From assembly GCA_035636095.1 (NCBI GenBank), contig DASPZU010000066.1, positions 16,545-80,544 on the forward strand: a stretch of 64,000 bases of DNA, given 5' to 3'. This stretch comes from Thermoanaerobaculia bacterium. Its GTDB lineage: Bacteria > Acidobacteriota > Thermoanaerobaculia > Gp7-AA8. Under the pieces are notes generated by a model, which saw only the letters and a list, made by a program, of their open reading frames with translations, ran no database searches and had not been told where the DNA came from. How positions within the stretch are numbered: the stretch's first letter is position 1; each line of letters begins with the position of its first letter. This document shows, piece by piece, positions 1,919-13,611 of the stretch. The position numbers and the translations under genes are program-made.

Positions 1919-2541
1919 TCGAACCCGCGGGCGTTCTCGTTGTTGACGACCACGCGCTCGTGCGCACCGGCGTCGTCAACATCATCAGCCACGAGGCCGA
2001 CCTCCGCGTGGTGGCAGAAGCCGCCAACGGAGCGGAGGCGGTGGTTGCATTTGCGAAACATCATCCCGACGTCGTTTTGCTCGATCTGCGGATGCCGGTG
2101 ATGGAAGGCGTGGAGGCGGTCCGGCAGATTCGCGAGCTCGATCCGAACGCCAGGGTCATCGTGCTGACGACCTACGATACCGACGAAGACATCACGCGCG
2201 CGCTGAAGGCGGGCGCGAAGGCTTACGTGCTCAAAGACATCACCGCCGACGAGTTGATCGCCTGCATCCACGATGTCATTGCCGGCAAGACCTATCTCGC
2301 GCCGGCCGCCGCGGCCAAGCTGGCCGAAGGCCTGACGCGGGTGCAGGTGACGCCGCGCGAGCTGTCGACGCTGCGCCTCATGGCCGACGGCAAATCAAAC
2401 AAGGAAATCGCCAGCACCCTCGGCATCAGCGAGCGCACCGTCAAGAGTCACCTCGGTCATCTCTTTGAGAAGCTCGGCGTCACCAGCCGCACCGAGGCGA
2501 TCAAGGTCGCGACCCGGCGCGGGCTGGTGCGTATGGACTGA
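1915..2541 (+). CDS. response regulator, NarL/LuxR family
   Basis: REC domain 'VLVVDDHALVR..DVVLLDLRMP' plus LuxR HTH 'TPRELSTLRLMADGKSNKEIASTLGISERTVKSHL'. ATG 1915 (ATGA coupling) is preferred over ATG 1882. Confidence 0.85.
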   Translation: MIEPAGVLVVDDHALVRTGVVNIISHEADLRVVAEAANGAEAVVAFAKHHPDVVLLDLRMPVMEGVEAVRQIRELDPNARVIVLTTYDTDEDITRALKAGAKAYVLKDITADELIACIHDVIAGKTYLAPAAAAKLAEGLTRVQVTPRELSTLRLMADGKSNKEIASTLGISERTVKSHLGHLFEKLGVTSRTEAIKVATRRGLVRMD

Positions 2542-3101
2542 TGCGAAAAGTCATCCTGAAGATGGCGATGTCGGTTGACGGGTTCGTCAACGGTCCCAAC
2601 GGGGAGTTGGAGTGGGTGTTTGAAACGATGGACGCCGAATTGACGAAGTGGATCGTCGACTCCGTGTGGCAAGCCGGCGTCCACATCATGGGGGCGAAGA
2701 CCTATCAAGACATGGCAGCCTTTTGGCCGAACCCGAGCGTGCAGCCTCCCGAGCATCGACCGTTCGCGGCGCCGATGAACGAGATTCCTAAAGTCGTTTT
2801 CTCTAAAGCGCTGAAAGAGGCGACTTGGAAAGAGTCGCGCATCGCGCGCGGCGATCTTCGCGAGGAGATTGCGCGTCTCAGGCAGCAGCCGGGTAAGCCG
2901 ATTCTCGCGCATGGCGGGGCGCGCTTCGCGCAATCGCTCGCGAGGGAGAACCTGATCGACGAATACCGCATCGTCACGCACCCGGTCGCCCTGGGCGGCG
3001 GAGCGCCTCTGTTCAAGGATTTGCCTTCACATCTGAATCTGAAACTGCAAGGCGCGACGACATTTGCGTCGGGCGTGGTCGCGCACATCTACGAACGCTG
3101 A
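2541..3101 (+). CDS. dihydrofolate reductase-like (RibD C-terminal domain) family protein
   Basis: The N-terminus 'MRKVILKMAMSVDGFVNGPNGELEWVF' is typical of the RibD_C/DHFR-like family. The start overlaps the regulator stop (TGATG). Confidence 0.75.
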   Translation: MRKVILKMAMSVDGFVNGPNGELEWVFETMDAELTKWIVDSVWQAGVHIMGAKTYQDMAAFWPNPSVQPPEHRPFAAPMNEIPKVVFSKALKEATWKESRIARGDLREEIARLRQQPGKPILAHGGARFAQSLARENLIDEYRIVTHPVALGGGAPLFKDLPSHLNLKLQGATTFASGVVAHIYER

Positions 3102-3109
3102 CGGCATTT

Positions 3110-3811
3110 ATGATGAAAAGAAAAAGCAAGAAGGCACTTCCCAAAATCGTCTCGCAAAATGCGTGGCAGAAGGCTCATGCAAAGCTGTTGGCGAAGGAAA
3201 AGGCTGCCACTCGTGCGCGAGACGCGCTGGCTGCGGAACGGCGTCGGCAGCCGATGGTGGAAATCGAAAAGGAGTATCTGTTCGAGGGACCCCAGGGCAA
3301 AGCCACTCTGCTCGATCTGTTCGAAGGACGCCGCCAGCTCATCGTCTATCACTTCATGTTCGCGCCTGGAGTTGATGGTTGGCCGAAGGCCGGCTGACCC
3401 GGCTGCTCATTATGTGTTGACCAGTTTGGTCACCTTGCCCATCTCCACGCACGCGACACGTCATTCGCCCTGATTTCGCGCGCGCCGCTGGCGAACATCG
3501 AACGTTATCGAAAACGCATGGGGTGGACGATACCGTGGTACTCGTCGCACGACAGTGACTTCAATGTCGACTTCGGTCTAACAACCAAGCGTGGTGAGAC
3601 TTTCGGCCTCAGCGTTTTCCTGCGCGATGGCGACAAGATCTTTCGCACCTACTTCACGTCGCTTCGCGGCGTCGAGGCCCTCGGCAGTGTCTGGACATTC
3701 CTCGATCTCACCCCACTCGGACGGCAAGAGGATTGGGAGAATTCGCCGGAGGGCTGGCCGCAGACCCCGCGCTACCAGTGGTGGCGCCGCCACGACGAAT
3801 ATGGTTCGTGA
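3110..3811 (+). CDS. DUF899 thioredoxin-like protein with one in-frame TGA (3395-3397) at the first Cys of CxxC; candidate selenoprotein or nonsense pseudogene
   Basis: ORFs 3110-3397 and 3518-3811 share a frame. The 120 nt between them is open and reads PGCSLCVDQFGHLAHLHARDTSFALISRAPLANIERYRKR. The full 233-codon product matches the DUF899 layout (..YHFMF..G-[C]-P-x-C-S.. ..MGW..PWYSS.. ..LDLTPLGRQEDWE..). Confidence 0.6.
3416..3433 (+). other. hairpin 19 nt downstream of TGA 3395 (SECIS-like candidate)
   Basis: Stem TGACCA (3418-3423) pairs with TGGTCA (3427-3432). The loop is GTT. G3416-C3433 can pair if T3417 bulges. The loop lies about 30 nt after the U of UGA. Confidence 0.35.
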
Positions 3812-11743: not shown

Positions 11744-12559
11744 ATGTCAGCGGAAGACGCCATCTCCGTCGCGGTGGTGGGCGGCGGATTCCTCTTCTTC
11801 ACGGCGTGGGAGGCGATTGCGCCGCTTCGGCGGACGCTGGAGCCGAAGCTGCGCCACGTCATTCGGAATCTCACCGTCGGCGGCGTCTCACTCGCGATCC
11901 TCACGCTGATCCAGGCGCCGATCCTCGTCCCGGTTGCGGCATGGGCGACGCGTCATCGCATTGGTCTGCTCACTCGAATTGCGCTTCCTGCGCCGCTCGA
12001 CACGATCGCCGCCATCATTCTTCTCGATTACACGCTGTGGTGGTGGCATCGGGCCTCTCACCAGGTCCCTTTTCTGTGGAGATTTCATCTCCCGCACCAC
12101 GTCGATCTCGATCTCGACGCGTCGACCGCTTTGCGATTTCACTTTGGTGAGCTCACGCTTTCGATCGCTTACCGTTCGCTGCAGATCGTGCTGATTGGGA
12201 CCACCGTTTTTCAGCTTTGGCTGTGGCAGACGATCCTTTTCGCATCGATTCTCTTTCATCACTCCAACGCGCGACTCCCAATCCCATTCGAGCGCGTCCT
12301 GGTGTACTTCATCGCGACGCCGCGCATGCACGGGATCCATCATTCGGACCGACTCAATGAAACGAACAGCAACTGGGCCAGCCTGCTGTCGATCTGGGAC
12401 TTCATCCATCGCACCATCGTTCTCGACGTTCCGCAGGCCGAGATCACCATCGGCGTGCCCGCCTATCAGGATGCCGCCGACGTTACGATCGGGAAGGTCC
12501 TTGCGCTGCCCTTCAAACGACAGCGCAGCGATTGGCAGCGCGTAGAGGTAGTTCAATGA
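11744..12559 (+). CDS. sterol desaturase / fatty acid hydroxylase family protein
   Basis: His boxes 'HRASH', 'HLPHH' and 'HGIHH'; multiple TM helices. Confidence 0.8.
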   Translation: MSAEDAISVAVVGGGFLFFTAWEAIAPLRRTLEPKLRHVIRNLTVGGVSLAILTLIQAPILVPVAAWATRHRIGLLTRIALPAPLDTIAAIILLDYTLWWWHRASHQVPFLWRFHLPHHVDLDLDASTALRFHFGELTLSIAYRSLQIVLIGTTVFQLWLWQTILFASILFHHSNARLPIPFERVLVYFIATPRMHGIHHSDRLNETNSNWASLLSIWDFIHRTIVLDVPQAEITIGVPAYQDAADVTIGKVLALPFKRQRSDWQRVEVVQ

Positions 12560-13611
12560 TCGCATTCGCTCTTGCAGTCCTGCTGATGACGCCCGCTGAG
12601 GTTTTGTGGGAGTACAAGACCGGCGGGTGAGTCTTCGCGACGCCCACGGTCGTGGGCGACGTCATCTACGTCGGCGCCTGCTCGGGCGTCTTCTCGGCCA
12701 TCGATCGATCCAACGGCAAGCCGGTCTGGCTGTATGACGTCGCGGGCGACGGAGACGCCCGCGAGTTTCACGGGAATCCGGTTGCGACGAAAGATCGCGT
12801 ATTTATTCCTACCGATGGCGGCCAGATCGGGCACATCTACGCATTCGATCGCGTGACGGGCGATGTCGCCTGGAAGTATGCACATCATGGAAACGGCAAC
12901 AGCGGCTTCACGAGCGACCTCCTGCTTGACGGAGATCGCGTCGTCGGCGTGACCGTCGATGAACGCATCGTCAGCTTGAACGCCGCTTCCGGCGCCGAGC
13001 TGTGGAGCTTTCCGATCGAGGCCAGGCGCAGGCGTGTCGGGATGTCGGCTGCCCTCGCGAATGGACGCGTATTTTTTGGATCGAGTAACGACGCTGTCTA
13101 CGCGATCGATTCGCAGAATGGCAAACAGCTCTGGAAGACGCAGCTCGACGCCCCGGCATCCACAGCCGTGGCGGTCGTAGGCGACGCGATTATCGCCGGC
13201 ACGCAAGGCAAGAAACTGTATCGGTTGAGGCAGTCGGATGGTCGCGCGCTTTCGACGCTGGATCTCGATGTCGTCCCGGAGGACACTCCCGTGGCCGGTA
13301 ACCGCGGGGTGTATGTCATGAGTGAAAAGAAGGTCATGCTGGTTGATCCGAAGCTAAGGCGCGTGCTGTGGCATGCCGACTCAAAAAGCAAATGGACTTC
13401 TCCTCGCCCTAGACTCTGGCACGGATGGGTAATCGTTGGAGATCGCGACGGGACGCTGTTTGCCCTCAATGAAGCGACCGGCGACGTCGCGTGGTCACAA
13501 ACCATTCACGACAAGCCGATCCGCGGGATCGGCTCGGACGATTCGACGCTCTACGTCGGAACAATCGATGGACAGGTCATTGCGCTTCGACCTGCTGCGG
13601 TAGGCAAATGA
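12556..13611 (+). CDS. PQQ-like beta-propeller repeat protein with one in-frame TGA (12628-12630) after codon 24
   Basis: ATG 12556 (ATGA overlap with the upstream stop) opens 'MIAFALAVLLMTPAEVLWEYKTGG*VFATPTVVGDVIYVGA..'. This is in the same frame as ORF 12652-13611. The segment spanning the TGA fits the blade motif repeated through the protein (..LW.Y....P.V.GD..YVG..). Confidence 0.6.
12637..12662 (+). other. GGUC-tetraloop hairpin 10 nt downstream of TGA 12628 (SECIS-like candidate)
   Basis: CGCCCAC (12641-12647) pairs with GTGGGCG (12652-12658). The loop is GGTC (12648-12651). The stem is extended by G12639-C12660, C12638-G12661 and G12637-U12662 across an A-A mismatch. Confidence 0.4.

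Follow-up and report, generated by a model that had tools for sequence, protein, structure and literature searches.

The majority of bacterial selenoproteins either resemble thioredoxin or fall into a small number of well-known enzyme families. In the selenocysteine insertion sequence (SECIS) of Escherichia coli fdhF, the apical loop is G22-G23-U24-C25, and G23 and U24 contact SelB. The catalogued extracytoplasmic selenoproteins without a thioredoxin fold include SaoB, SaoX, the FCYXU-type TonB-dependent receptor and the GSU2204/MtrB-PioB family (PMC13188914 Table 1). In this study, a 64,000-nucleotide (nt) stretch from a Thermoanaerobaculia bacterium (contig DASPZU010000066.1 of assembly GCA_035636095.1, positions 16,545 to 80,544 of the forward strand; hereafter the window) was analysed, in which a beta-propeller gene at positions 12556-13611 contains an in-frame TGA. 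Comparison with related loci indicates that this gene is very probably an intact and genuine selenoprotein gene, with selenocysteine (Sec) encoded by the TGA. The described propellers that the predicted protein resembles include BamB and tetrathionate hydrolase, the latter being an extracytoplasmic, cofactor-less propeller of the type that resembles pyrroloquinoline quinone (PQQ)-binding proteins, with chalcogen-compound chemistry at its propeller face. We know of no Sec in tetrathionate hydrolase.

The reading frame and its in-frame TGA

Translation of the window from ATG 12556 gives MIAFALAVLLMTPAEVLWEYKTGG-TGA(12628-12630)-VFATPTVVGDVIYVGAC..., with the stop codon at 13609-13611. The start codon ATG 12556-12558 and the TGA stop of the FA_hydroxylase gene upstream share the ATGA at 12556-12559. 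The original prediction had described this frame across the TGA and its ATGA coupling to the stop of a desaturase/hydroxylase gene, and all coordinates agree. The public gene call on the source contig is a 319-residue fragment that begins at GTG 12652. The features of the gene are as follows.

12556-13611, forward strand: full predicted selenoprotein coding sequence, 351 codons including Sec (translation, match to Pfam PQQ_2 and homologue comparison)
12556-12627, forward strand: N-terminal segment before Sec, with a hydrophobic leader (MIAFALAVLLM..) and the 'VLWEYKTGG' strand predicted to close blade 8 (velcro strand)
12628-12630, forward strand: in-frame UGA, candidate Sec codon; TGA at all loci compared, Cys in homologues P0194 and P0211, Ala in P0216
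12641-12658, forward strand: predicted apical hairpin of a bacterial SECIS; 7-bp stem (12641-12647 with 12652-12658) and GGUC loop (12648-12651)
12679-12681, forward strand: invariant Cys of a 'GACSG' motif, residue 17 after Sec, proposed Sec partner
12766-12816, forward strand: invariant residues of blade 2, Phe46-His47 (12766-12771) and Asp62 (12814-12816), possible active-site residues

A protein search returned about 70 homologue clusters with identities of 30-85%, all of which started at 'M/V-FATPTVVGD' or a few residues later. This pattern is expected if every one of them has a stop at the TGA position and is truncated by gene callers. DNA was fetched for 80 related loci from species-representative genomes, and the upstream frame was read in each. 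The comparison set consisted of 58 loci, namely the window and 57 others, whose protein identities also ranged from 30 to 85%. They were mostly from Acidobacteriota (Thermoanaerobaculia, Terriglobia and Pyrinomonadaceae/Chloracidobacterium), and the remaining loci were from single or few metagenome-assembled genomes (MAGs) labelled KSB1, Gemmatimonadota, Zixibacteria, Eisenbacteria and Chloroflexi. The codon was TGA in 58/58 loci, and TAA, TAG or a sense codon was found in none. Two paralogues in one Terriglobia MAG (QHYK01; loci L006 and L012) both contained the in-frame TGA and the hairpin. The real terminators of the compared genes were TGA (28), TAA (18) and TAG (10). Reassignment of TGA in the genetic code was ruled out, as TGA also ends these genes in 28 of 56 cases. 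A crude scan of the window for further TGA-interrupted open reading frames (ORFs), based on G+C content at third codon positions, yielded only off-frame noise.

The sequence on both sides of the TGA was also conserved. In nearly all loci, the upstream frame encoded an export leader with a hydrophobic core, many of which contained lipoboxes (..LAGC.., ..SINCAQT.., ..LVGC..), and the leader was followed by the motif W-x-[YF]-[DE]-T-G-G before the TGA. The Trp at position -7 was present in 58/58 loci. The Gly at position -1 was equally invariant and was encoded by four different codons (GGT 26, GGC 18, GGG 10, GGA 4), a signature of protein-level selection upstream of the TGA. Downstream of the TGA, Val+1, Phe+2 and Pro+5 were invariant. 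Together with the conserved TGA, these residues bear out the earlier view that the TGA lies within real coding sequence.

The gene could instead be a nonsense pseudogene or a truncated gene, in which translation ends at the TGA and initiation at GTG 12652 yields a shorter cytoplasmic propeller. Every gene caller chooses this solution and a GTG is indeed present in the window, but a chance nonsense mutation is not expected at one and the same codon in 58 loci as divergent as these, and the frame upstream is itself under protein-level selection. Nor is the restart conserved. The +1 codon is always Val, but a non-start Val codon is used in 33/58 loci; position 8 is Ala in 29/58; and no ATG, GTG or TTG occurs within 15 codons after the TGA in 11/58. 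Moreover, GTG 12652 sits within the 3' arm of the hairpin, and a product started there would be without the leader and the strand that closes blade 8. A pseudogene is thus very improbable. The original prediction had named a pseudogene with re-initiation at this GTG, and also readthrough, as alternatives, and both are effectively excluded by the comparative data.

Further evidence that the TGA is a Sec codon came from the rare homologues with a sense codon. When 1.84 billion representative proteins were searched exhaustively with a profile, a few full-length homologues with leaders emerged, and a Cys was aligned to the TGA position in P0194 (..AKG-C-IYSSPAIRGD..APCRG) and in P0211 (..AGG-C-IFVTPTVVGD..AACSG). 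Such Cys forms are rare, with 0 among the 71 closest protein clusters. A second Cys, 17 residues after Sec in the motif G-[AS]-C-x-G, was found in 57/58 loci (TGC 40, TGT 17) and was kept in both Cys homologues. In P0216, the TGA position is occupied by Ala and the partner position by Val. The Sec/Cys position and Cys17 therefore appear to be kept or lost together, which suggests, with the Ala form represented by a single sequence, that the two residues may work as a pair. The 22 remoter propellers with identities of 24-31% had ordinary residues at the TGA position and were missing the downstream Cys. Asked of the orthologues, the question of what stands at the interrupted codon was thus answered by TGA throughout and by Cys in rare homologues. 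The original prediction had cautioned that the position is not a conserved Cys and that a catalytic Sec is not to be expected. This caution did not hold: no feature of the family is more conserved than this position, and it is paired with the invariant Cys.

The exception in the Cys count was locus L041 (2622-2678), in which a 1-nt deletion about 40 nt past the TGA shifts the frame ahead of the invariant Cys. The deletion probably reflects a mistake in assembly or a true pseudogene in this MAG. The FA_hydroxylase gene upstream of the propeller gene in the window (11744-12559, PF04116) is OlsE-like, and the overlap between its stop and the following start codon suggests translational coupling to the selenoprotein gene. 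Among the 58 loci, this pairing was limited to the window, L002, L004 and L051.

The hairpin downstream of the TGA

In the window, CGCCCAC (12641-12647) is fully complementary to GUGGGCG (12652-12658), and the two arms enclose the loop G21-G22-U23-C24, where the U of UGA is position 1. The sequence agrees with the 7-bp stem and GGUC loop of the original prediction, and exactly this element, with nothing else, was returned as the RNAalifold consensus of 58 orthologous segments, each covering the TGA with 6 nt upstream and 50 nt downstream of it. Three further pairs had been proposed beyond the A12640/A12659 mismatch. They are present in the window (12637-12639 with 12660-12662), but were paired in only 35-40% of the alignment, are not conserved and do not belong to the element. 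Perfect hairpins with a 7-bp stem and a 4-nt loop occur 11 times per strand in this G+C-rich window. Only comparison with relatives lifts the hairpin above what chance would give, the evidence from the single sequence being weak. The sole other hairpin of this kind on the forward strand with an N-G-U-N loop, at 2574-2591 within ORF 2541-3101, is probably due to chance.

The covariation score of the alignment was 0.211, compared with 0.104 for shuffled columns, and the observed value was reached by 0 of 500 column shuffles. When the pairing partners were slid by 1-3 columns as a control, covariation was roughly halved or lower. It might be argued that such a hairpin simply follows from the conserved peptide T-P-T/A-V-V/A-G-D and is functionless as RNA, given that conserved residues contribute a first or second codon position to 5 of its 7 pairs and that four pairs never or almost never vary. 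This explanation, which we regard as scarcely credible, is contradicted by the pairs and loop bases that are free to vary. The third position of codon +4 (Thr/Ser) and that of Gly+9, both synonymous sites, were paired in 49/58 loci by six standard pair types (CG 25, GC 9, UA 6, GU 5, UG 3, AU 1). Pair 24-33, also formed by two third positions, changed from CG (45) to UG (6), GC (2), GU (1) and UA (1). Moreover, Thr/Ala and Val/Ala replacements in the stem were coupled (AU 27, GC 15, GU 2). Although the first and last loop bases fall on synonymous third positions, they were fixed as G and C in 57/58 loci, the same proportion in which the whole GGUC loop was found; in the same genes, G ends 34% of the Thr/Ala codons, and GTC accounts for 40% of the Val codons.

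The hairpin was also compared with the published consensus for bacterial SECIS elements. The consensus requires a loop of 3-9 nt, an upper stem of 4-16 bp and a G in the first two loop positions (PMC13188914). In addition, the UGA-to-loop distance is 16-37 nt, and the minimum free energy (MFE) is -7.5 kcal/mol or lower (PMC13188914). With its 4-nt GGUC loop, 7-bp stem, UGA-to-loop distance of 17 nt and energy of -12.6 kcal/mol, the hairpin falls within all of these ranges. Its energy was -13.7 kcal/mol in a 45-nt context, and the family median was -11.9 kcal/mol.

Similar to the SECIS of E. coli fdhF, the predicted element is a stem-loop within the coding sequence, located right after the UGA, with a GGUC apical loop that has G-U at the position of the SelB contacts in fdhF. 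Different from fdhF, which has a bulged U, none of the members has one and the seven pairs are contiguous. In addition, the loop is one nt closer to the UGA, the stem starts 10 nt after the UGA and the lower stem is not conserved; binding of SelB is a prediction here. The hairpin would thus work like the fdhF SECIS but is not an exact copy of it, and it falls outside a strict fdhF-type definition. The earlier proposal of an fdhF-like SECIS hairpin, and hence of a possible Sec, is supported by its conservation, its covariation and the published constraints.

The propeller fold and the site around the predicted selenocysteine

The whole protein matched Pfam PQQ_2 (PF13360) with an E-value of 3.5e-38. 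In the AlphaFold2 model of the part after the TGA, an 8-bladed propeller was obtained with a predicted local distance difference test score (pLDDT) of 92.5 and a predicted template modelling (TM) score of 0.90, and its last blade had only three strands. The full-length Cys homologue P0211 was modelled with a pLDDT of 91.7, and its residues 23-30, which are equivalent to 'VLWEYKT', formed a confident beta strand just before the Cys. We interpret the modelled strand before the TGA as the velcro strand that would close blade 8. Given this strand in P0211 and the three-stranded last blade in the model without the segment, the segment before the TGA appears to be structurally required. The predicted product is an 8-bladed, BamB-like propeller.

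BamB was the best structural match, with a TM score of 0.86 and a root-mean-square deviation of about 2.5 A, and many members of the family are, like BamB, lipoproteins. Different from BamB, to which the identity is only about 20%, the family has Sec together with the invariant Cys, His and Asp that are absent from generic PQQ-like propellers. Moreover, it is found in variable genomic contexts, which sets it apart from BamB and PQQ_2 propellers. What the protein shares with BamB is the fold alone, and the cut-offs of the BamB equivalog models TIGR03300 and NF008351 were not reached (122 bits vs 285 and 93 bits vs 423, respectively). Similarly, the scores against the PQQ-dependent dehydrogenase models TIGR03075 and TIGR03074 were below their cut-offs (80 bits vs 480 and 39 bits vs 833), and the protein of about 350 residues is far shorter than these profiles of 530 and 783 positions. 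Tetrathionate hydrolase (Protein Data Bank entry 6l8a), lower in the ranking of solved structures, is also eight-bladed and belongs to the same superfamily (TM scores of 0.84-0.87). It differs by its identity of 16-17% and its larger size of about 430-460 residues.

The position of Sec within the propeller was derived from the blade register, which was obtained with DSSP from the model. Sec is predicted to lie in the loop that enters the innermost strand of blade 1, on the same face as Cys17, which would be in the loop leaving the second strand. It would therefore be near the central channel, on the face where propeller enzymes usually have their active sites. In blade register, Asp62 would be the equivalent of Cys17, as it is 17 residues after Glu45, the Sec equivalent, and His47, two residues after Glu45, would match Phe2. 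The invariant columns were F46, H47 and D62 in alignment A1, in which the partner Cys was also invariant, and F79, H80 and D95 in alignment A3.

Based on these features, the following mechanism can be proposed. When the ribosome arrives at UGA 12628, the hairpin at 12641-12658 would act as a bacterial SECIS and recruit SelB with Sec-tRNA(Sec), and Sec would be inserted without termination. The product would begin with a signal or anchor leader, which is a lipoprotein leader in many relatives; this leader argues for export of the protein, as predicted from its sequence. 'VLWEYKT' before Sec would complete the last blade as its outer strand. Sec and Cys17 could act as selenenylsulfide redox partners or bind a metal as a Se/S pair, and His47 and Asp62 of blade 2 may join this site. 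It is plausible, although not shown, that the protein is an extracytoplasmic oxidoreductase or a chalcogen- or metal-binding protein that uses the Sec-Cys pair. C-terminal fusions were found in several homologues. P0260 ends in a Redoxin domain (TlpA-like, with a CPFC motif), and ChaN/Tiki-like, glyoxalase, DUF6265 and DUF6624 fusions also occur (other fusion-bearing homologues: P0155/P0051, P0235, P0202/P0204 and P0056). The Redoxin fusion, a single case, hints at a possible thiol-selenol redox partner.

Probable selenium decoding and place among known selenoproteins

A second gene with an in-frame TGA is located on the same contig.

3110-3811: DUF899 (PF05988) thioredoxin-like gene, in which TGA 3395-3397 replaces the first Cys of a CxxC motif (..WPKAG-U-PGCS..)

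A Cys was present at the TGA position in 116 of the 120 best homologous proteins. Among 77 related metagenome loci, TGA was found in 8, including the four closest (88-93% identity), and the rest had TGC or TGT. The four closest loci also shared a hairpin 23 nt past the UGA, UGACC-AG[G/U]U[U/C]-GGUCA, whose loop is AG[G/U]U. Judging from these sequences, the DUF899 U-x-x-C gene has the appearance of a genuine Sec subfamily; the 119 families of the 2026 catalogue do not include DUF899 (PMC13188914). With two independent conserved TGA/Cys genes on one contig, it can be argued that this lineage decodes Sec. The closest DUF899 homologue, P0269 (86% identity), reads '..GVDRRPEAG-R-PGCS..', with Arg at the TGA position; CGA is one base away from TGA, and the Arg could reflect a variant, an error or a gene call that runs through a Sec codon in another form.

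The distribution of SelA was surveyed by one motif scan and two seeded scans, with at least 80 SelA matches and at least 80 family loci compared. The SelA matches listed were from Terriglobia, Bryobacteraceae, Vicinamibacteria, Holophagae and at least 45 Pyrinomonadaceae/Pyrinomonadales MAGs, as well as from Candidatus (Ca.) Angelobacter, Ca. Sulfotelmatobacter, Chloracidobacterium, Gemmatimonadota and Zixibacteria. Thus, SelA appears widespread in the same families and genera as the propeller family, which counts in favour of the Sec reading. The Sec genes were clustered as selD-selA-selB in an Acidobacteriaceae MAG (L240) and as selA-selB in a Zixibacteria MAG (L184). SelA of Pyrinomonadaceae (L204-L206) has GDKLLGGVQSG around the pyridoxal phosphate lysine, compared with GDKLLGGPQAG in E. 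coli and Aquifex; as a result of this variant, the Pyrinomonadaceae clade is missed by motif scans that use GDKLLGGPQAG.

Several results weigh against a selenoprotein at 12556-13611. Insertion of Sec at UGA 12628 is a prediction from conserved anatomy. A tblastn search with E. coli SelA, SelB and SelD gave no match in the window or in the 80 related loci with their flanks, and no tRNA, tRNA-Sec included, was found by a tRNA scan of the window. The window lies on an unbinned 112-kb contig from a JGI soil metagenome, and the search for the machinery was confined to the window and to the flanks of the related loci. Among the matches listed in the survey, no assembly had both SelA and the propeller family, and no Thermoanaerobaculia were sampled. 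With regard to the hairpin, the single-sequence fold of 61 nt had a z of -0.9 compared with shuffled sequences, with the MFE structure in a different register; a search of Rfam at gathering and E-value thresholds returned no family match and only chance matches (a CRISPR repeat and microRNAs); and an A-C mismatch occurred at the Thr/Ala-Val/Ala stem pair in 14/58 loci. The leader in the clade of the window itself is short and is without a positively charged start. The proximity of Sec and Cys17 is a prediction from blade topology. Finally, all-against-all clustering of flanking ORFs identified no neighbour common to more than about 12 of the 58 loci and gave no functional clue.

The missing machinery would be accounted for by a conserved arrangement free of selenium, in which the upstream frame is a short regulatory or coupling leader ORF, or in which a near-cognate tRNA (Trp, Cys or Arg) reads the UGA at a low level with the aid of the hairpin. 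In other systems, a stable hairpin that follows a stop codon can enhance readthrough. Such an arrangement seems unlikely to us, if slightly less so than a pseudogene or a by-product hairpin. An export leader and a required strand are sensible only if they are fused to the propeller, the stop is exclusively TGA, and the G[G/U] loop and its spacing are specific to bacterial SECIS elements. Moreover, homologues have in place of the codon one for Cys, which is the sulfur analogue of Sec; the partner Cys disappears where the position has become Ala; and a second gene of the Sec/Cys type is on the same contig. Insertion of Sec at the TGA thus remains the preferred reading.

The family was then compared with the known selenoproteins. 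No PQQ, BamB or propeller entry was found among the 119 prokaryotic selenoprotein families of the 2026 catalogue (PMC13188914 Table 1). The terms PQQ, propeller and BamB were likewise absent from the texts on BSepDB and deep-Sep and from a 2022 review, with the full BSepDB family list lying outside this comparison, and a literature search on PQQ, propeller or BamB with selenocysteine found nothing relevant. NCBIfam release 20 contained no model for the family, and all that it returned were BamB and PQQ models with scores far below their cut-offs; the NCBI records name the homologues 'PQQ-binding-like beta-propeller repeat protein', in truncated form. Similar to the protein of this study, SaoB and SaoX (substrate-binding), the FCYXU-type TonB-dependent receptor and GSU2204/MtrB-PioB are predicted to be exported or in the envelope, with Sec next to or near a Cys. 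However, their folds and motifs are unrelated, none is a beta-propeller, and their NCBIfam models do not match here. The recoding mechanism itself is the standard bacterial one of a Sec UGA with a SECIS; what makes the gene stand out is the fold, the predicted export and the near-exclusive use of Sec over Cys. On balance, the gene appears to belong to a family that had not been described as a selenoprotein family. It is also fairly probable that this is the first beta-propeller selenoprotein, representing a large, near-always-Sec, exported and often lipid-anchored family of soil bacteria that is truncated in annotation and uncatalogued, as is the DUF899 U-x-x-C subfamily, and that the Sec, Cys, His and Asp on its face form a new extracytoplasmic selenoenzyme or a chalcogen/metal site.

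The public gene calls compared for the family all start after the TGA and lose both the leader and a structural strand. A profile combined with a SECIS rule would correct at least about 70 protein clusters and flag Sec-decoding genomes. The abundance of the family in soil Acidobacteriota suggests that the use of selenium in soil is under-counted, and the rarity of the Cys forms suggests a chemical need for selenium rather than an optional use of it. The family is therefore a good place to ask what Sec does beyond Cys. If true, an exported beta-propeller selenoprotein would represent both a new fold and a new cellular location for selenium biology.

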